A stretch of 64,000 nucleotides of DNA from Patescibacteria group bacterium (GTDB lineage: Bacteria; Patescibacteriota; Patescibacteriia; UBA1558; UBA10009): NCBI GenBank assembly GCA_041662565.1, contig JBAZSE010000004.1, forward strand, positions 7,398-71,397, read 5' to 3'. Shown here piece by piece: positions 1,927-53,461 of this stretch. The notes beneath the pieces are model-generated. The model was not told where the DNA came from. It saw nothing but the letters and a program-made list of their open reading frames with translations, and did no database searches. Within the stretch, counting starts at the first letter, position 1. Every line of letters starts with the position of its first letter. The position numbers and the translations under genes are program-made.

Positions 1927-3423
1927 TTAAAACCTCTCTTTAATATACTTGAATACTTTTTGGATCAGTTCTTGGTTGGACATCGGTTCACGATCAAAAA
2001 TAACTTTAATGCTTTGTAAAGTAATGGGCTGATGATTGGTGTTAAGTTCCGGCGCACTAATGGCAAAACGCAATTTACGATTTAAAACGGCGGCATTAGC
2101 TAAAGAAAAAGTTACTTGTCCGGTTTTAAAACCATTAACATTAACAGGGGTCTGGTAATCGCTGATAATGTAATCTATATCGGGAGTGAGGGTTAAATCC
2201 TTTAAATTATAAATTTCGGGATTAAAAAACATTTCCTGTGAAAAAGCCATTAATCCCTGGCCAAAAATTTTAAGATCATTTTTAGGTGAATAAATATAGA
2301 CAGGCGATTGTTGGGCTGTAATAAAATAATTTTGATGGGTTTTATCCAAAACAACGCTTTGATTGTTATTAATGCCAATCGTTTGCAAGCCGGCCGGATG
2401 AGAAGTGTAAAAACCCAAACGAGGCATAGTGCTATAAATAGCTGTTGGCTGGTATTTTAAATCAGTAAATCCATCGCTGTACTCCACACTATCCCCCAGA
2501 TAAAGGCTATTGATAAAAGTTAGATACTGCTGTTTGGTTTTGATTTGCCTAATAAAGATATCGTCGTTTATTACCAGTTCCAAGCGGTACACGCCTTCGG
2601 GCAAACCAGCCATTTTAGCTTTTACTGTTCTAGGTATTGATGCGCCCACCAGATTGCCAACATGCCCATCATCCTCAAGTTTAATCTGGTTGATTTTTTG
2701 GCCTAATTCATTATACACATTAATCAGAATAGGATCCGGGCCTTTGGTCCGGTTGATATCTTGGATAATAAAACTGAAATCTAAAGCTTCATTTTTTATA
2801 TAGGTATAAAAACTATGCTTGCCACGCAAGGTTTTATTTAAAAAATTATCAACATTTTGCGGACGATAATTTGGCAAGAAAAATTTACGTGGCAACTTAT
2901 AGTTAATTGCCGCGATATTTGACAAAGAATTTACATTAGCTAAAAATTGTTCTCTTGTTAAAAACTTTTTTTCTTTTTGCCAAATAGTCCCCTGTTCGCT
3001 TACCATTTTAAACCAAGGTAAATTATCTAAAAGCTGATTTTCCAAGGGTTTAAAATCATAATTCCATTCATCATCGCCCGAGTTTCGTAAACCAACTTGT
3101 ACCAAGGGCTGAGTCGTGTTTTGGTAGGTTATTTCTAAAGTTGCCGTAGCAAATTTTTGCGGAATCCTGGTTTCAAAATAAACCGGTTCCTGCAAAATTT
3201 GCTGCCAAGCAACGCCATTACCCTTAACTTGATAAATTGGCGATAAACGGTTGGCCGGAAAAAGATTTGTTAACGCGGGCGAATCATGCTTAAAATTATA
3301 AGTAAACTCCAGATGGCCCGATAAAACCAGATCTTTTTTAATCAATATTCCTAGGATTACAAAAGGAGCGATAATAATTATAACTCGCGTAATTTTATAT
3401 AAATTTTCAAAAAATCTTTTCAT
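1927..3423 (-). CDS. Hypothetical membrane-anchored extracytoplasmic protein
   Basis: 498 aa with a single N-terminal TM helix. No recognisable catalytic motif. Confidence 0.4.
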   Translation of the reverse strand: MKRFFENLYKITRVIIIIAPFVILGILIKKDLVLSGHLEFTYNFKHDSPALTNLFPANRLSPIYQVKGNGVAWQQILQEPVYFETRIPQKFATATLEITYQNTTQPLVQVGLRNSGDDEWNYDFKPLENQLLDNLPWFKMVSEQGTIWQKEKKFLTREQFLANVNSLSNIAAINYKLPRKFFLPNYRPQNVDNFLNKTLRGKHSFYTYIKNEALDFSFIIQDINRTKGPDPILINVYNELGQKINQIKLEDDGHVGNLVGASIPRTVKAKMAGLPEGVYRLELVINDDIFIRQIKTKQQYLTFINSLYLGDSVEYSDGFTDLKYQPTAIYSTMPRLGFYTSHPAGLQTIGINNNQSVVLDKTHQNYFITAQQSPVYIYSPKNDLKIFGQGLMAFSQEMFFNPEIYNLKDLTLTPDIDYIISDYQTPVNVNGFKTGQVTFSLANAAVLNRKLRFAISAPELNTNHQPITLQSIKVIFDREPMSNQELIQKVFKYIKERF

Positions 3424-5192: not shown

Positions 5193-7322
5193 ATGGTTAT
5201 CAATCTAAACTATTTTAAATTTTCTCTGTTGCTGTTAATTTTACTGGCTTTTAACATACTTAACTGGCCAGCAGCTGTAATTGCCTCACTCGCAGGCGCT
5301 TTATTTTTAATTTTTGCCGGTTTGGCCATTGGCAATTGGCTGTTTATAAAAAATTCCTGGACCTGTCGTTTTATTTACGGCCTCCTATTTACAGGAGTTT
5401 TCGCCGCTTTAATTAATACCGCGTTCTTTTATCTTTCTAAAATGGACCAAAATGCCCACTTGGCCACTTTAGTTTTAATTTTTATTTTAACAACCTTGGC
5501 TGTTAAAAAACATCCTTTAATTTTTAACTTAAGTTGGAAGTTCGTTTGGCCGCGCTTAAATTTAACCTTATTAACTCTGGGCTACGGTTTTTTTATTGCC
5601 CTAATGTTTTGGCTTATTTTTAAAGCTCAAACAATCGTTTCAATTCGTTCACCTTGGGAAACAATTACCCCACAGATTTTTTTGTTATATTTTTTGGCTA
5701 CTTTTATTCTCTATGCCATTATAAAATTTTCCCATAGCAATAAAACATTGTTTTTAGTTTGTCTGCATGCTTTTTTAAGTTTTAGCGTAGCGTTGATAAT
5801 TTATCGCTTGGGTTTTGATTATGATCCTTTTATTCATCGCGAAAATCTACGCCTTATAGCCAAAAACGGCACTTTGCTACCCAAGCCGTTTTATTATATC
5901 GGTCAATACGGCTTAATTATTTTTTTAAGTAAACTTTTAAAAATTGGCCTGGATAATCTGGATAAGTTGTTATTACCATTAATGTCGGCTGTTTATTTGC
6001 CCACTACCGTTTATTACGCTTTTAAAGATAACTTTAAGGCGGAAAACAAAAATGTTATTTTAACCGCCTTAACGATTTTACTTTTGCCTTTTGGCGGATT
6101 TATTTTAACCACCCCCCAAGCGCTGGCCAATCTTTTTTCTTTAATAACGATTTTGCTTTCTTTATACTACATTAACCATCCGCGTGTAGCGCTGTGGCCA
6201 TTGGCTTTATTGGTGATAATGGCTTTGGTTGTTCATCCTTTGGCGGGCTTGCCTTTATTTTTCTTTTTTGCAGTTTTGGCTTTTTACCAACATCGACAGA
6301 AAAAATTCCCCCTAACTGGAACAAGCAATTTGCCAAAAATAATCCATCAATCAATTCTTTGGGAAATAATTATTTTGGGATCTTTGGCCTTGCCTGTTGC
6401 TTTTTTGATCAATTCGTATACCCTATCCCAACTTAAAGTAACTCTTTCCAGTAGCTGGGTTGCCAATATTATCGCTTCACTTTCGCACCAAACTGCTTTG
6501 TTTTACTACCGGCCGTTTATTTCTTTAACCGATTTAGTTTACAGCTTTGGCAAAAACAGCACTTTAATTATTTTTGTTTTGGCTTTAACTGGATTATTTT
6601 TTGTGGTAAAACATCGGCAATTTAAGCCCTATTTTGCTTACTTAGCAGGATTTTTAATGCTGATAATGAACTACTTTTTGGTTAAAGGCATGATTTCATT
6701 TTTTTCTCTGCTTTCTTACGAACAAATCACCTATCCCAAACGCATATTGGAAATAAGTATCTATTTATTACTGCCCTTTATTATCATTTCTCTTTATCTT
6801 TTTTTCCAAAAATTACAACAGCAAAAATCAGCAGTTATTTTATTATCTTTTGTTTTATTGTCAGTAGGGCTTAGCTGTTCTTGGTACTTGGCTTATCCCA
6901 GAGTTGATAAAATATCCGAAGATCACGGCTATTCCAGCTCTCAAACCGATTTTAAAACAGTAAAATTTATTGATGAGTTACAAAAAAGCCAGCCCTATAT
7001 TGTGCTAGCTGCCCAGCCCGTTAGCGCCGCCGCCATTAGTTCTTTGGGCTTTAAATACTACTATAACGATAACTTTTTTTATCCGGTTCCTACCGCTAGC
7101 CGCTTATATGGGCTATACGAAGATTTGGCCTATGCTAAAGGCAATACCGGAGAAATTATTGCCACAGCCGGCTATTTAACCGGCGTTACAGATATTTATT
7201 TTGTTTTAAACAATTACTGGCTTAATGCTTCGGATTTGATTGAAAAGCACAAACAATCGGCCGACCAATGGTTTGCCATTGACGGTAAAAATTATATATT
7301 TAAATATCAAATTGGCAAATAA
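5193..7322 (+). CDS. Large polytopic membrane protein (more than 14 TM), unknown; possibly GT-C or polymerase-like
   Basis: 709 aa, highly hydrophobic. The only plus-strand gene in the first 28 kb. Confidence 0.45.
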   Translation: MVINLNYFKFSLLLLILLAFNILNWPAAVIASLAGALFLIFAGLAIGNWLFIKNSWTCRFIYGLLFTGVFAALINTAFFYLSKMDQNAHLATLVLIFILTTLAVKKHPLIFNLSWKFVWPRLNLTLLTLGYGFFIALMFWLIFKAQTIVSIRSPWETITPQIFLLYFLATFILYAIIKFSHSNKTLFLVCLHAFLSFSVALIIYRLGFDYDPFIHRENLRLIAKNGTLLPKPFYYIGQYGLIIFLSKLLKIGLDNLDKLLLPLMSAVYLPTTVYYAFKDNFKAENKNVILTALTILLLPFGGFILTTPQALANLFSLITILLSLYYINHPRVALWPLALLVIMALVVHPLAGLPLFFFFAVLAFYQHRQKKFPLTGTSNLPKIIHQSILWEIIILGSLALPVAFLINSYTLSQLKVTLSSSWVANIIASLSHQTALFYYRPFISLTDLVYSFGKNSTLIIFVLALTGLFFVVKHRQFKPYFAYLAGFLMLIMNYFLVKGMISFFSLLSYEQITYPKRILEISIYLLLPFIIISLYLFFQKLQQQKSAVILLSFVLLSVGLSCSWYLAYPRVDKISEDHGYSSSQTDFKTVKFIDELQKSQPYIVLAAQPVSAAAISSLGFKYYYNDNFFYPVPTASRLYGLYEDLAYAKGNTGEIIATAGYLTGVTDIYFVLNNYWLNASDLIEKHKQSADQWFAIDGKNYIFKYQIGK

Positions 7323-9418: not shown

Positions 9419-10572
9419 GATTTATTATGGTAAATATCCAACAGATCACGGGTAATTATTTGCCAACTATAAGTTTCTTCCACGCGTTTTCTGCCTCGCG
9501 CGCCATATTCGATTGCCTGAGCGGGGTTATCCAAAAAAAACTTTAGCTGGGTTACCAGCTGACCCACATCTTTGGGTTTAAATAAGCGGCCGCTTTCATT
9601 AATGCCCACAACTTTTCTAACTCCGGGCAAATTAGCAGCCACTACCGGTTTGGCGCAAGCCATAGCTTCCAATAAAACCATACCAAAGGCCTCGCTTTGG
9701 TCAATTGAGGGCAACACAAAAATATCGGCTAAATGATAATGCCCGCTTAATGCGGAATCCGAAATATAACCTGTAAAAATAATTTTTTCGCTTAAGCCAT
9801 AAGATTCTGCCAAATCTTCGTAAATCGGCCGCAAATCGCCATCGCCGACAATAATTAGCTTAACATCCTCGCGGTTTAAAATTTCCAAGGCCTTAATTAA
9901 ATAATTTACTCCTTTAAAATAATGAGCCGAATCCAATCCACCAACGAATAAAATGACTTTTTTGCCACCCAAGCCGTACTTATCTGCCAATGTCTGATCG
10001 GCGGGTAAAGGCCTAAAGTTGTTAATATCAACCCCGTTAGGCATAATTTTGAATTTGCCGGGATATTTTAGATAAAATTGCTGGACCAATGATTGTTTTA
10101 AATAATCTTCCGAATTAACTATTACCGCATCTGCCCTTTTTATTAACTGGTGCAAAAATATCAAACTATAAAATTTAAAAAAATATGAATGCCAACCCCG
10201 GCCAACCAAATCCATGTGATAATGCAAAATTACCTTTAATTTTTTACCTTTTAGCAACTTGACGATTATTAATGGCAAAGCCGCTCCGATAAAAGGATAA
10301 TGAAAATGAACAATATCGAATTTCCAGACCCGCCAAAGCAGCTGCATAACAATGGCGCCATTACCATACTTGAATTGCGGATTAAGCTTGTGGATTTCAA
10401 AAAAACTGCTAATGTCACTTTCCATCCAGCTGTACCGCGGCGTTAAAACGGTAACTTGATATCCTAAACGGCTAAGATGATCCGAAATATTATAACAAAC
10501 ATTGCCAATGCCGCCTCGGTAAGGCGGAAAGGTACAAACAACTTGAGCGATTTTTGTTTTACCGTCGGGCAT
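9415..10572 (-). CDS. Glycosyltransferase family 4 (GT-B)
   Basis: GT4 motifs (FPPYRGGIGN, VLPSIDQSEAFGMVLLEAMACAKPVVA). The track start is TTG; the in-frame ATG at 10572 (MPDGKTK) is preferred. Confidence 0.7.
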   Translation of the reverse strand: MPDGKTKIAQVVCTFPPYRGGIGNVCYNISDHLSRLGYQVTVLTPRYSWMESDISSFFEIHKLNPQFKYGNGAIVMQLLWRVWKFDIVHFHYPFIGAALPLIIVKLLKGKKLKVILHYHMDLVGRGWHSYFFKFYSLIFLHQLIKRADAVIVNSEDYLKQSLVQQFYLKYPGKFKIMPNGVDINNFRPLPADQTLADKYGLGGKKVILFVGGLDSAHYFKGVNYLIKALEILNREDVKLIIVGDGDLRPIYEDLAESYGLSEKIIFTGYISDSALSGHYHLADIFVLPSIDQSEAFGMVLLEAMACAKPVVAANLPGVRKVVGINESGRLFKPKDVGQLVTQLKFFLDNPAQAIEYGARGRKRVEETYSWQIITRDLLDIYHNKS

Positions 10573-10574
10573 AA

Positions 10575-11666
10575 TTACCAAATAATCAATTTTTTAATAA
10601 CCAGCCAATAGGCGTTAAAAATCTTATTTATAACTTTTTCCATAAGCCAGCTATTTACTTCTTGATGCTCGATAACACCAGAAAAGTTTACCACTATTTC
10701 CCTATCTTTCACAATCCTACTAGATTGAATTTTCCGGCGGGTTTGGCATAATTTCTGCCAACTAGTGGGTTTTAAAAAATAGAGATAAATTTTTATTTTT
10801 TCCCGCCACCAGCCGTTTTTAAAAGAAAAAATAAACAACCCTATTTCCATTACTAACAGGGCTGGAAAAATTAACAACAAAGTTCTTAAATCATAATTGG
10901 CCAAAATAACCAGCCAACGATTTCTTTCCATAAAATAAAACTTTTTGATACTGCGACTAAATTCATACTTATGGTAAACAATGGCTTCCGGAACAACTTG
11001 ATTTTTATAACCTGATAGTAAAAATCGCCAGCCCAAATCCAAATCCTCGTGATACATAAAAAAACCCTCGTTAAACAAACCGATTTTGTTTAAAACCTCC
11101 AATTTAATTAAGCAGGCCGCGCCGGAACAGTAGTTTATTTCGTTTATCGTGTGTTGTCCAGCTGAGCTGGATCGTGTGTTGTCCAGCTGAGCTGGATCGT
11201 GTATCGTGTTTGGAGTTTTATGACCATTGGTGTAGCCAAAACCCAAATAATGGATCACGTTGCCAACACTGTTAATTAAATCCGTTAACGGCCATAATAA
11301 AATTTTTGACTGAACTGCAGCAATTTGATTCGATTGTTCAATCCTATTAACTAAAATATCCAAACAACCTACTTCCAGAAGCGCATCGCTATTAAGCAAA
11401 AAAACATAATCAAAATTATGGGCCTGGGCGTATTTAATGCCTAAATTATTACCTTTGGCAAAACCCCAATTGATCTCTTGTTCCAAAACAACTATCTGGG
11501 AAAAGTTTTCTCTAACATACTCAACTGATTCATCATGGGATGCGTTATCCACAAAAATAACTTGTTGGTTAACAGTTTGAGGCGGATTATTAAAAATACT
11601 CCCCAAAAGGCCAGGGAGGTATTTTTGACCGTTAAAATTAACAATAATGATGGCAACTTTCTTCAT
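10575..11666 (-). CDS. Glycosyltransferase family 2 (rhamnosyltransferase-like), carrying an internal 25-bp tandem duplication
   Basis: GT2 motifs VAIIIVNFNG, FVDNAS, LNSDAL, CSGAACLIK, YHEDLDLGWR. Confidence 0.7.
   Translation of the reverse strand: MKKVAIIIVNFNGQKYLPGLLGSIFNNPPQTVNQQVIFVDNASHDESVEYVRENFSQIVVLEQEINWGFAKGNNLGIKYAQAHNFDYVFLLNSDALLEVGCLDILVNRIEQSNQIAAVQSKILLWPLTDLINSVGNVIHYLGFGYTNGHKTPNTIHDPAQLDNTRSSSAGQHTINEINYCSGAACLIKLEVLNKIGLFNEGFFMYHEDLDLGWRFLLSGYKNQVVPEAIVYHKYEFSRSIKKFYFMERNRWLVILANYDLRTLLLIFPALLVMEIGLFIFSFKNGWWREKIKIYLYFLKPTSWQKLCQTRRKIQSSRIVKDREIVVNFSGVIEHQEVNSWLMEKVINKIFNAYWLVIKKLIIW
11146..11202. repeat. Perfect 25-bp tandem direct repeat (ATCGTGTGTTGTCCAGCTGAGCTGG x2) followed by a partial third unit (ATCGTGT), inside the GT2 coding sequence
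   Basis: Seen directly. The two copies are read in different frames (PAQLDNTR, then SSSAGQHT) and the ORF stays open. Confidence 0.85.
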
Positions 11667-49910: not shown

Positions 49911-51000
49911 AACCATCCCCTTTTTTGATTACCTACGGCAATACCGCATAATTAAACCAAAACTGAATATAGTTTTTGAGCGTGTTCTGGCTTCAGGCCA
50001 GCTTATTTTAGGACCAGAAGCGAAAAAGCTGGAAATTAATTTTGCCAAATATTTGGGCGCTAGACATGCCATAGGAGTTAATTCAGGCACCGATGCCTTA
50101 AAAATCGGCCTAAAGGCCTTAAAAATTGGCTCTGGAGACGAAGTTATTACGGTGGCTAACACCTTTATCGCCACAATTAGCGCCATTAGAGAGACGGGCG
50201 CAAAGCCGGTTTTCGTTGATATTAAGAATGACTTTACCATAAACGAAAAATTGATTGCCAAGGCCATTACCAAAAAAACCAAGGCAATCTTGCCGGTTCA
50301 TTTATACGGCCAGGCGGCCAATATGCCGACCATTATGGCGATTGCCAAAAAATATAAACTCAAAGTCATAGAAGATTGCGCTCAGTCCGTAGGCGCTAAA
50401 ATTGGTTCAAAATACACCGGCAGTTTTGGCCATCTTGCCTGCTTTAGCTTTTATCCCACCAAAAATTTAGGAGCTTATGGCGATGGTGGCATGATTGTTA
50501 CCAACAATAAAAAGCTGGCCCAAATTTGCCGGCAGTTACGCTGTTATGGCACAAGCAAAAAAAACTTTGCTGAACTTGAGGGTTATAATAGCCGTTTAGA
50601 TGAAGTTCAAGCGGCTATCTTGAGTGTTAAACTGAAACATTTAAACAAATGGAACAATCAACGCCACCGGATTGCCGAATATTATCTTAATAATATTCAT
50701 AACCAAAAAATCATACTGCCTCTTATAAAAAATCCGACAGGACATGCGTGGCATTTGTTTGTTGTGCAAGTAAAAAATAGGGATAAATTTATTCATCATC
50801 TTAAAGCAAACAAAATTGATTATGGCATTCATTACCAGTATCCTATTTTTGAGCAAACTGCCTACAAATTTTTGAAGGTCAAAAAAACGGACTTTCCTCA
50901 AACAAGTTCCGTAGCCAAAAAGATCGTTTCTTTACCTATGTTTCCGGAATTAACCAAGGCAGAAATGGCTTATATCGTTAAAAAACTCAATCAGTTTTAG
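49897..51000 (+). CDS. DegT/DnrJ/EryC1-family sugar aminotransferase (FdtB-like)
   Basis: FFDYLRQYR N-terminus, SFYPTKNLGAYGDGG PLP-lysine region. Confidence 0.75.
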   Translation: MSKNKTIPFFDYLRQYRIIKPKLNIVFERVLASGQLILGPEAKKLEINFAKYLGARHAIGVNSGTDALKIGLKALKIGSGDEVITVANTFIATISAIRETGAKPVFVDIKNDFTINEKLIAKAITKKTKAILPVHLYGQAANMPTIMAIAKKYKLKVIEDCAQSVGAKIGSKYTGSFGHLACFSFYPTKNLGAYGDGGMIVTNNKKLAQICRQLRCYGTSKKNFAELEGYNSRLDEVQAAILSVKLKHLNKWNNQRHRIAEYYLNNIHNQKIILPLIKNPTGHAWHLFVVQVKNRDKFIHHLKANKIDYGIHYQYPIFEQTAYKFLKVKKTDFPQTSSVAKKIVSLPMFPELTKAEMAYIVKKLNQF

Positions 51001-52064
51001 CCAAAAAAATCTTCAATGATCTTAACCAGATGTTTGCCTAAAACTTCGGGCGATAGCTTGGTAATAAATGTCTGGTAGCCGTTCCGGGCTATTTTTTTAG
51101 TTAATTCAGGATCATTTTTTAAAATCATTATTTTATCGGCCAAATCCTGCGGATCAGCTGCTTTAACAAAAAGGCAATTTTGGCCATCTGTTAAAATTTC
51201 CCGATTGCTCTTGGAATCGCGGGTAATGTAAGGCAAAGCCAAAGCCAATGACTCAAAGGTTTTATTTTGAATCGTCCGCTCCAGGCGGATATGTTCCGAA
51301 AACTGCCCTAAACAGATATGTGATGCCAACATCTTGGCTCGCAAATCATCATCCGATAAATAGTCGGTAATCAACTCCAGATTGGTAACCTGGAGTGTGG
51401 CGATTTTTTCCTTAACTTTTGGGATATAGGCGCCATGACCGATTAAAATAAATTTGATATGCTCTTTTTCTAACAATTTTGCCGCCTCAATCACGTATTC
51501 CACGCCAGTGGCCGGTAAAAACCAACCCCTAAAAATAACGGTAAATTCTTCAAATTTGGCAATAGCCGGATCAGGGTAAAATAACGCTTCATCGGCACCG
51601 GTAAAAATTACTTTGAATTTTTTAGGATTTGCCAAAAAAAACTTTGTTAAAAATTTTTTTTGTTCTTCGCTTTCCACTAAAATCAAATGGGCTGTTTTAT
51701 AGGCCAGCCAATCAATCAACCAAAAATACAAAGAGTGCAAGGAAATGGGCTTATGTTCCTGCCGATCCAAAATAATGCTTTCGTACTTTGAACACAAGGC
51801 GTTATAAACTACTCTTTTAGAAGAAATTAATCTGGCTAGCGGTGCCATTAAATTGCTTTGATAGCCCACAAACATCAAATCGTAATCATGACGAATTTTC
51901 CAATGCTGTTTAAAAACCCGCCAATATTTTAGCAAGCCGCGAGAATTATCCCAAACCTCCAATACTTCCCAGCCCTGTTGTTTAAGGCCTTTTAAATAAA
52001 CCAAATCTCTGGGCCACCGGGGCTTAGCTAAACCAAAGTAACAAATTTTTAGTGGTTTATTCAT
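50997..52064 (-). CDS. Glycosyltransferase family 4; intact paralogue of the split GT4 at 54995/53461
   Basis: 355 aa, N- and C-terminal Rossmann halves. Its stop codon overlaps the stop of the convergent plus-strand gene (4-nt overlap). Confidence 0.65.
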   Translation of the reverse strand: MNKPLKICYFGLAKPRWPRDLVYLKGLKQQGWEVLEVWDNSRGLLKYWRVFKQHWKIRHDYDLMFVGYQSNLMAPLARLISSKRVVYNALCSKYESIILDRQEHKPISLHSLYFWLIDWLAYKTAHLILVESEEQKKFLTKFFLANPKKFKVIFTGADEALFYPDPAIAKFEEFTVIFRGWFLPATGVEYVIEAAKLLEKEHIKFILIGHGAYIPKVKEKIATLQVTNLELITDYLSDDDLRAKMLASHICLGQFSEHIRLERTIQNKTFESLALALPYITRDSKSNREILTDGQNCLFVKAADPQDLADKIMILKNDPELTKKIARNGYQTFITKLSPEVLGKHLVKIIEDFFG

Positions 52065-52076
52065 AGTGTTATAATT

Positions 52077-52222
52077 GGTGGCATATATTTTATTTTTTCA
52101 CTGCGGAACTCGCCAGTGTACGTCTCGTTGATTCAGCCATTAGCTCCTTTTGTCATTTTACTCCGAACATTTTTTAGAGTGCTCACACAAGTCCTCGTTT
52201 CAAAAATAAAATATATGCCACC
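52077..52222. repeat. Intergenic element with perfect 21-bp terminal inverted repeats (GGTGGCATATATTTTATTTTT ... AAAAATAAAATATATGCCACC) flanking a 104-bp GC-richer core
   Basis: Seen directly. The core contains a CACTG...CAGTG hairpin. On the minus strand it holds a 16-codon micro-ORF (52090-52140) preceded by AAAGGAG. Confidence 0.5.
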
Positions 52223-52233
52223 AGTTTATTAAA

Positions 52234-52887
52234 TTATTTAATAGCAATTTTAACAATAAACCGATAAGCAAACAAACCTGGCCAAATTTTTACCAACTGC
52301 TTAGTGCCCCTGGTTGGCGCGTGATTATCAATTTCAATTATTCGATACCCCGAATCAGCAATCATTTTTTTAAAACTGGCCCACGAAAAAAAATGAATAT
52401 GGCTTTTATCCATAATCCCCTGGTTGGTGTAATTAAACTGGCCAAAAAATATTTTTAAACGATTTTTCCAAAACAATAAATTTGGCACGGTAATTAAAAT
52501 CTCTTTATCTGCCTGAGGCAATTCTTTAAGCTTGATTAATAAGTTTTCCGGTTCAAACAAATGTTCCAAAACTTCCGAAAGCACAATAGCATCGTAATTA
52601 TTTTGCCTTAATTCTTCGGGCCAATTTACAATTTCATCTTCCAGATTGAATTGCCAGGCATTATCCAATACCTGTTTGGCTTCATGCACTGCTTGAGCGG
52701 AAATATCCGTGCCAAAAAATCGGCAGGGCATTAATTTTTTTACCTCTTGGCCTAAAATACCATTACTGCAACCAATATCCAAAATAGTTTTATGAGAGTT
52801 TTGGGTCAACCAGCGAATAATCGCGTTTTTACGGTAATCATTAATTTTATGATACTTGGCGCCTTGATAATATTGATCCAGTGACAT
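52234..52887 (-). CDS. Class I SAM-dependent methyltransferase
   Basis: Motif I ILDIGCSNGILG. Confidence 0.6.
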   Translation of the reverse strand: MSLDQYYQGAKYHKINDYRKNAIIRWLTQNSHKTILDIGCSNGILGQEVKKLMPCRFFGTDISAQAVHEAKQVLDNAWQFNLEDEIVNWPEELRQNNYDAIVLSEVLEHLFEPENLLIKLKELPQADKEILITVPNLLFWKNRLKIFFGQFNYTNQGIMDKSHIHFFSWASFKKMIADSGYRIIEIDNHAPTRGTKQLVKIWPGLFAYRFIVKIAIK

Positions 52888-52894
52888 AAATTGA

Positions 52895-53461
52895 TTAAAA
52901 TAAATCCTTAATTAATTTTTCAGCTATCACAACTGGCCTGCAAAATTGATGGTATAATTTATAACCACCGCTGGCAATTGTTTTTCGTAAATCATGATTG
53001 TTTTTTAATAAAATAATCTTTTCAGCTAAATCTTTGGCATTGGCTCTTTGGCATAATAAAATATTATTTTGATCGTAAAACAATTCTTTTATCGCCGGGG
53101 TATTGGCTGTAATCACCGGTTTAACGCAGGCAATGGCTTCGTATATTTTATTAGGAATTACTCTCAAAGTTTTTTCGGTTTCTCCAAAAATTCCCAAGCA
53201 CAGATCATATTTTTTTATCCGCAAGGGCATTTCAATAAATGGCACTTGTCCGGCAAAACAAATATTTGTTAAACCGAGTTTTTTTGCTAATGAAATTGAT
53301 TCTTGATATGTTTGTCCGTCACCGATTAACTCAAAATTGATATCAGAATCAAATTCTAAAATTTTAGCCGCCTCAATTATATAAGGCACCCCCTGTAACG
53401 GGATAACCTTGCCCCAAAATCCGACTATGAATTTTTTGCTTAAATTAATCTCTCTTTCCAT
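52895..53461 (-). CDS. C-terminal (Glycos_transf_1) half of a split GT4 glycosyltransferase
   Basis: 188 aa. Aligns along its length with the C-terminal domain of the 50997-52064 GT4 (IEAAKILE/IEAAKLLE, LKNNHDLRK/LKNDPELTK). ATG start; overlaps the 3' end of the epimerase gene by 22 nt. Confidence 0.6.
   Translation of the reverse strand: MEREINLSKKFIVGFWGKVIPLQGVPYIIEAAKILEFDSDINFELIGDGQTYQESISLAKKLGLTNICFAGQVPFIEMPLRIKKYDLCLGIFGETEKTLRVIPNKIYEAIACVKPVITANTPAIKELFYDQNNILLCQRANAKDLAEKIILLKNNHDLRKTIASGGYKLYHQFCRPVVIAEKLIKDLF

Follow-up and report, generated by a model that had tools for sequence, protein, structure and literature searches.

The 169-nt spacer between two minus-strand open reading frames (ORFs) at positions 52065-52233 of the window, by which we mean the whole 64-kb stretch of DNA analysed here, from an uncultivated Patescibacteria (CPR) bacterium, is wholly occupied by an inverted-repeat element. 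The element is most likely the lone relic of a small transposable element and without conserved function. Comparison with related loci shows that it went in as one unit between the methyltransferase and GT4 glycosyltransferase genes of a tightly packed surface-glycan operon.

The window is identical to bases 7422-71421 of the ENA contig ERZ27249449 k141_350510 (223,853 bp), and the whole of it forms one large surface-glycan island of 64 kb. The island encodes many glycosyltransferases (GT2 and GT4), two NeuB-type nonulosonic acid synthases and a CMP-sugar cytidylyltransferase. It also contains DegT/FdtA amino-sugar genes, epimerases, a Wzy_C/TPR protein, a priming sugar transferase, an ABC exporter and CysD/CysN-like sulfate-activation genes. 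When L029 and L031 are added to the window, about 80 kb of contiguous surface-glycan biosynthesis genes, with more than ten glycosyltransferases among them, can be followed in this small CPR genome; an ORF of about 1870 aa is found at the start of the source contig. By its homologues of the glycosyltransferase (GT) the organism is assigned to Patescibacteria/CPR, in the neighbourhood of Paceibacterota or Parcubacteria. No tRNA and no Rfam family was detected in the 64-kb window.

Sequence rich in A/T precedes the start codons in the window, where genes often overlap or directly adjoin one another. A Shine-Dalgarno (SD)-like motif (GGAG, GAGG or AGGA at -16..-6) is present at 1/60 ORF starts, in agreement with the first-pass annotation of this DNA, which had described the genes of the window as lacking one.

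The two genes that flank the element are both intact and on the minus strand. Upstream lies a SAM-dependent methyltransferase (Methyltransf_23/MetW-like, 217 aa, 52234..52887), and downstream a GT4-type glycosyltransferase (355 aa, 50997..52064). We place the GT4 start at the ATG at 52064, because homologues are full-length (354-358 aa, 99-100% query cover) and a Logan call also gives 355 aa. The public ENA call of the same gene (L001:10884-11891) uses a TTG 20 codons further downstream, which gives a protein of 335 aa.

The terminal inverted repeats of the element are 25 nt long and 96% complementary, with one mismatch, and a repeat search places them 104 nt apart. The left repeat (52073..52097, AATTGGTGGCATATATTTTATTTTT on the plus strand) forms the 3' arm when the transcribed minus strand is read, while the right repeat (52202..52226, AAAAATAAAATATATGCCACCAGTT) departs from the left one at a single base, the third counted from the outer end. 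An exact-match scan gives a perfect arm of 22 nt (52076-52097 / 52202-52223); this includes the 21-mer that had earlier been reported as a perfect inverted terminus, so these termini are real and slightly longer than described. No other exact inverted repeat of at least 15 nt whose arms lie within 400 nt of each other occurs in the 64-kb window. Further, when up to three mismatches are allowed the 21-mer is found in the window only in the two arms, where shuffled sequences give an expectation of 0.04.

Between the arms lies a core of 104 nt (52098..52201), without a significant fold of its own and without a detectable homologue. The first-pass annotation called this core markedly GC-rich. Its GC is 45%, which is indeed above the 37% of the window, but the description is overstated, as adjacent coding windows of 100 nt reach up to 41-48%. 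The small internal hairpin CACTG-N10-CAGTG that had been pointed out is present at 52099..52118, and it does not raise the stability of the core above that of shuffled sequences.

In total the element measures about 153 bp (52073-52226), and it is bordered by a candidate target-site duplication. The left copy (52069..52072) reads TAT where it abuts the 25-nt arm, or TTAT with a shift of one base, and the right copy (52226..52229) reads TTAT, with TAT at 52227-52229. The match of TAT (3 bp) or TTAT (4 bp) on both sides is short and AT-rich, so that it could plausibly be due to chance. The sequence of the junction on the transcribed strand is TAA-TTTA-ATA-[ AACTGGTGGC...GCCACCAATT ]-ATA-ACACT-ATG. 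If the element and one ATA are subtracted from the spacer 12 nt are left, which is comparable to the spacers of relatives.

The closest GT homologues, which are 67-73% identical, come from three loci that are syntenic with this part of the window: L025, from JGI, and L027 and L028, both from Logan. In all of them the gene order is that of the window: an epimerase, an ORF of 189-190 aa with a GT C-terminal domain, the methyltransferase (196-217 aa as called) and the GT. The flanking proteins of the three loci are 56-85% identical to those of the window. For the methyltransferase the identity to the relatives is 56-67% and for the GT it is 67-72%, i.e. the divergence is similar on both sides of the junction. 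The distance from the methyltransferase stop to the GT ATG is 2 nt in L025, 9 nt in L027 and 0 nt in L028, as against 169 nt in the window. Arms and core are missing together in these three loci, and the element is missing from all 15 related loci that were examined. Of the 12 more distant GT loci (L013-L024), most likewise have a GT ORF that starts within the upstream ORF or shortly after it. Given the spacers of 0-9 nt in the three syntenic relatives, the window carries a lineage-specific insertion of about 153 bp in a spacer of about 12 nt. The insertion hit an AT-rich intergenic target and has left both adjoining genes intact.

The synteny also bears on the neighbouring stand-alone ORF of 188 aa (52895-53461, minus strand), which shares 22 nt with the end of the epimerase gene and is made up of a C-terminal Glycos_transf_1 domain alone. 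Since an ORF of 189-190 aa is kept at this place in L025, L027 and L028, it represents a short or split glycosyltransferase that is conserved, as opposed to a recent pseudogene.

Next, we consider the copy number of the element. No second copy was found in the window, nor in the 80 kb of the 224-kb source contig that were covered (the window and about 16 kb more), and the same 80 kb contain no transposase gene. The two-arm pattern gave 0 matches in 185,579 GTDB species genomes. The exact 21-mer arm gave nine single-arm matches, in unrelated contexts, among 241 M JGI metagenome records, and one further single-arm match, also unrelated, in IMG/VR. These ten matches, most of which lie inside coding sequence (the contexts being an AMP-binding enzyme, a PurD-like gene, a PAAR/VgrG spacer and a viral gene), were dismissed as chance. 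In IMG/VR a relaxed two-arm pattern and a 21-mer from the core both gave 0 matches, and blastn against phage and plasmid records returned only chance matches of 21-33 nt.

At the protein level, frame 1 of the plus strand of the spacer is open over 55 codons (SVIIGGIYFIF...KIKYMPPVY*), with no canonical start before codon 17; an open frame of this kind is expected by chance, across six frames, in about 1 region in 10. This frame has no Pfam hit, and neither it nor the concatenated peptides of all other frames found a match among 5.8 billion predicted proteins. On the other strand, the arm beside GT4 (52061-52084, minus) contains an AUG inside the 25-bp stem that opens a frame of 7 codons, MPPIITL, whose UGA stop overlaps the GT4 start (AUGA). 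This is a classic arrangement for translational coupling and may be a coincidence.

The locus itself was recovered from ENA ERZ27249449, Logan SRR18595301 and Logan SRR6484324, and these three assemblies agree fully in its sequence and orientation. Logan contigs are constructed such that every 31-mer in an accession is distinct (PMC12424806). Two of them, L002 and the 39-kb contig behind L034, run across the element and its arm/core junctions unbroken. Such unbroken contigs at k=31 would imply that near-identical extra copies are absent from elsewhere in those samples, and also that the samples hold no substantial mixture of core orientations.

On balance we favour the view that the element is an orphan, either MITE-like or the relic of an internally deleted IS element, which is single-copy and non-autonomous. 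A MITE-like mobile element was among the candidates of the first-pass annotation, and it is the best supported of them, by the all-or-none insertion, the 25-bp terminal inverted repeats and a possible duplication of 3-4 bp. Additional copies, which that annotation had named as the check for this idea, did not come to light in the 80 kb of the contig, in the exact-pattern scans of the collections or among the predicted proteins. The element is an orphan and not a demonstrated repeat family.

MITEs are below 500 bp, have terminal inverted repeats of about 4-30 bp, go to AT-rich intergenic targets and give transcripts with stable stem-loops; direct repeats are seen in young copies, and derivation from IS elements is described (PMC10969869). 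At about 153 bp the element falls well within this size and holds no transposase gene, its longest frames being of 16 and 55 codons and without homologues. Its terminal inverted repeats are unique in the window, and it is present or absent as a whole at orthologous sites.

Two groups of MITEs are of particular use for comparison. In Neisseria, the MITEs known as Correia repeat-enclosed elements (CREE) are about 100-155 bp long and end in inverted repeats of 26 bp, so that our element, with repeats of about 25 bp, is in the same size class. CREE number a hundred or more per genome. Both are inserted in intergenic sequence beside genes, with a short AT target duplication, which in our element is a candidate only. 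In both, the transcript contains a long duplex that RNase III can bind or cut; for our element this is a prediction, while Correia elements are known to bind RNase III and to be either cleaved or protected by it (PMC2649163). However, there is no sequence similarity between the two. Further, CREE have IHF sites and promoter-forming ends, while our element is known from one copy, has no promoter consensus and sits in a CPR host.

Low-copy MITEs of the MITEAba12 type form the second group. Like our element they are non-coding and shorter than 500 bp, with terminal inverted repeats at their ends and direct repeats on either side (the latter again a candidate in our case). MITEAba12 is present in 1-22 copies per genome, so that MITEs of this type can be single-copy, and they are thought to be IS-derived (PMC10969869). 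The difference is that MITEAba12 is a multi-copy family described in other genomes, while for our element no parent IS and no family were found in the searches.

A parallel in terms of host and position was seen in one of the more distant loci, that of a Yanofskybacteria MAG (L021, JACPNJ010000005.1). Within 13 kb it contains at least five inverted-repeat-bounded elements with common termini, at 2888-3002, 3001-3288, 5875-6005, 10055-10170 and 11022-11135 (termini ATGAATCCCGTACGA / ATCCCGTTAGAAGTT ...). The common termini can be written as ATGAATCCCGT(A/T)(C/A)GA ... TC(G/T)(T/A)ACGGGAT. One of these elements has an intact ORF for a GIY-YIG nuclease of 95 aa (Pfam E = 9e-17), with start and stop in the arms, and the others are ORF-less derivatives of 112-125 bp. 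An element of about 125 bp is located exactly between the upstream gene and the GT orthologue. These may represent a GIY-YIG-based mobile element with MITE-like derivatives in CPR.

The elements of this MAG and that of the window are alike in being short (about 110-290 bp), bounded by inverted repeats and located in a CPR glycan cluster, and one of those in the MAG has the same relative position, directly upstream of the GT orthologue. In contrast, their termini (ATGAATCCCGTACGA...) are unrelated to those of the window element, they occur in at least five copies where ours has no partner, and one of them has the GIY-YIG ORF. They do show that spacers of this kind in CPR glycan clusters are colonised by small mobile DNA bounded by inverted repeats.

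Two other origins were considered for the inverted repeats. An integron attC site was rejected: attC sites have RYYYAAC ... GTTRRRY at their ends and an imperfect stem with extrahelical bases, whereas here the ends do not match GTTRRRY, the stem is perfect, and there is a single element in 64 kb and no integrase. A local snap-back duplication was rejected as well, as the arms have no local source.

If the element is indeed such a relic, its history may be outlined as follows. A transposase, acting in trans or once encoded within the element, would have recognised the 25-bp terminal inverted repeats, and integration at an AT-rich target would have duplicated TAT or TTAT. The interior would later have shrunk to 104 nt. 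Read on the minus strand, the layout resembles that of an IS element: a left end, a putative leader of about 57 nt, an SD, an ATG, a few codons and a stop inside the right end. Such a layout would explain the presence of an SD-led start codon in a genome without SD use, and the SD-ATG would then be the relic of the start of a foreign transposase gene, from an SD-using context.

Today the element would be passive. It would place a near-perfect duplex of 25 bp in the polycistronic mRNA, the end of which lies 8 nt before the GT4 AUG, or 12 nt if only the perfect 21 bp are counted, and this duplex would break the tight stop/start linkage that is seen in the relatives. By analogy with Correia elements the duplex is a plausible substrate of RNase III. 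A regulatory effect, if there is any, would be a side-effect of the insertion and not a conserved device. The first-pass annotation had, as a fallback, suggested a one-off long-stem hairpin. This fits the likely consequence at the RNA level, but it does not explain the origin of the element.

Whatever its origin, the insert could have come under selection in this lineage as a cis-acting RNA hairpin, serving as an RNase III site, a stability determinant or a translational barrier. According to this idea, which we regard as possible but unlikely, the long stem in the operon mRNA uncouples the expression of the methyltransferase and GT4. The spacer does fold very stably: on the transcribed strand the whole of it reaches -47 kcal/mol (z = -6.2 vs shuffles). 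Further, the arms are still perfect across 22 bp, the stem ends 8-12 nt before the GT4 AUG, and Correia elements offer a precedent (PMC2649163).

However, the opposite strand folds equally well (-45 kcal/mol, z = -5.5 vs shuffles). Taken by itself, the 104-nt core is no more stable than shuffled sequence (z = +1.0 and +0.4), and the folding signal of the spacer is therefore entirely due to the arms. These pair by Watson-Crick pairs only, without the G-U pairs or bulges that are typical of evolved RNA stems. That the arms are purely Watson-Crick and that both strands fold equally well points to a symmetry at the level of DNA. There is also no U-tract or terminator, the hairpin is not conserved in any relative, and a recent insertion equally explains the perfect arms.

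Inverted repeats around a short segment are also a feature of invertons, and a different reading is that a site-specific recombinase encoded elsewhere flips the 104-bp core between the repeats of 22-25 bp. Transcription or translation into GT4 would thereby be altered, so that surface glycan is phase-varied. We consider it improbable that the element is such an inverton, and, taken a step further, quite improbable that it is a working phase-variation switch in which a recombinase in trans inverts the core and toggles the expression of GT4.

The resemblance is nevertheless clear. Within a surface-glycan island of 64 kb, the segment immediately before a glycosyltransferase gene is short and enclosed by perfect inverted repeats, and the core has a directional signal, the SD-ATG, on one strand only. 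Classic invertons are located in polysaccharide loci, as in the fin regions of Bacteroides fragilis, and the PhaseFinder survey (Jiang et al., 2019) reportedly describes them there too. As in the B. fragilis fin and E. coli fimS invertons, the repeats (9-30 bp in invertons) surround a short segment upstream of genes for surface structures.

Against this, the core is seen in one orientation in all three assemblies, and the k=31 Logan contigs are unbroken at the arm/core junctions. None of the ORFs in the 80 kb that were covered has a recombinase domain, and no sigma-70-like promoter was found in the core on either strand, although CPR promoters are poorly known. Finally, the whole device, repeats included, is missing from the syntenic relatives. 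This absence as a unit is better explained by a mobile insertion than by a switch that has evolved in place.

It is very improbable that what was inserted here is a small RNA gene in its own right or belongs to a known RNA family. A size of about 150 nt and a closing stem would be compatible with a small RNA. However, an Rfam scan by E-value over 51500-52800 gave only generic long-hairpin miRNA precursor models, far below threshold (27 vs 140 bits), a scan of the whole window at gathering thresholds gave no match, and ARAGORN found no tRNA or tmRNA. The core has no stable fold, and the searched collections hold no homologue. Within the core there is no promoter or terminator consensus, on neither strand for a sigma-70-like promoter, counts being at chance level and CPR promoters being poorly known. 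A TTGTCA-N19-TAGAGT on the plus strand, picked out by eye, was rejected as a promoter, its spacing being outside the usual range. Also rejected were 6S or SRP RNA, and a retron ncRNA, as there is no reverse transcriptase nearby.

A structured regulatory RNA or a small RNA gene had been put forward in the first-pass annotation. Neither idea is borne out: the absence of the element from all orthologous loci, together with the lack of an Rfam match, of a tRNA or tmRNA, of a promoter or terminator and of a core fold in the scans above, rules out a conserved riboswitch, attenuator or small RNA of this operon.

The same annotation drew attention to a strong SD followed by a micro-ORF. Both are there: an SD-like AAAGGAG (52144..52150, minus) stands only 3 nt upstream of an AUG (AAAGGAG-cua-AUG), which opens an ORF of 16 codons, MAESTRRTLASSAVKK, with a TAA stop inside the arm (52090..52140, minus). 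AGGAG-N3-10-ATG occurs three times on both strands of the window (128 kb of strand), one of these in the 104-nt core; for a segment of the size of the core the expectation is roughly 0.005, in what is a post hoc test. As only 1/60 genes has an SD-like motif, the combination of strong SD and micro-ORF lacks a translational context.

It is scarcely credible that the strong SD drives translation of MAESTRRTLASSAVKK as a leader peptide or small protein, and that this controls GT4 by attenuation: the motif is on the transcribed strand and rare in the window, but SD is not used in this genome, a spacing of 3 nt to the AUG is poor, there is no alternative terminator/antiterminator, the ORF is missing from relatives, the stop and the last codons are within the 25-bp stem, and the peptide, albeit very short as a query, has no match among the 5.8 billion predicted proteins. 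A type I toxin was rejected too, the peptide not being hydrophobic.

If the transposable-element reading is right, the element is ordinary genome debris and of modest value, and its importance would be higher only if the core inverts. In that case, if the phase-variation switch were true, it would mean heritable heterogeneity of the surface glycan in an ultra-small, episymbiotic CPR bacterium; we found no report in the literature, and know of none, of a switch of this kind in CPR. Nor did our literature search find work on MITEs or invertons in Patescibacteria.

The relic of a transposable element, for its part, documents an inverted-repeat-bounded mobile-element insertion in a streamlined Patescibacteria genome. 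It also calls for some caution in annotation: a strong SD with a micro-ORF, in a genome that does without SD, can be a foreign relic and not a gene. Further, a 25-bp duplex, set between genes that are otherwise 0-9 nt apart, is what distinguishes the locus with the insert from those without it. This natural comparison could help in examining how such a duplex is tolerated in CPR operons that lack SD.
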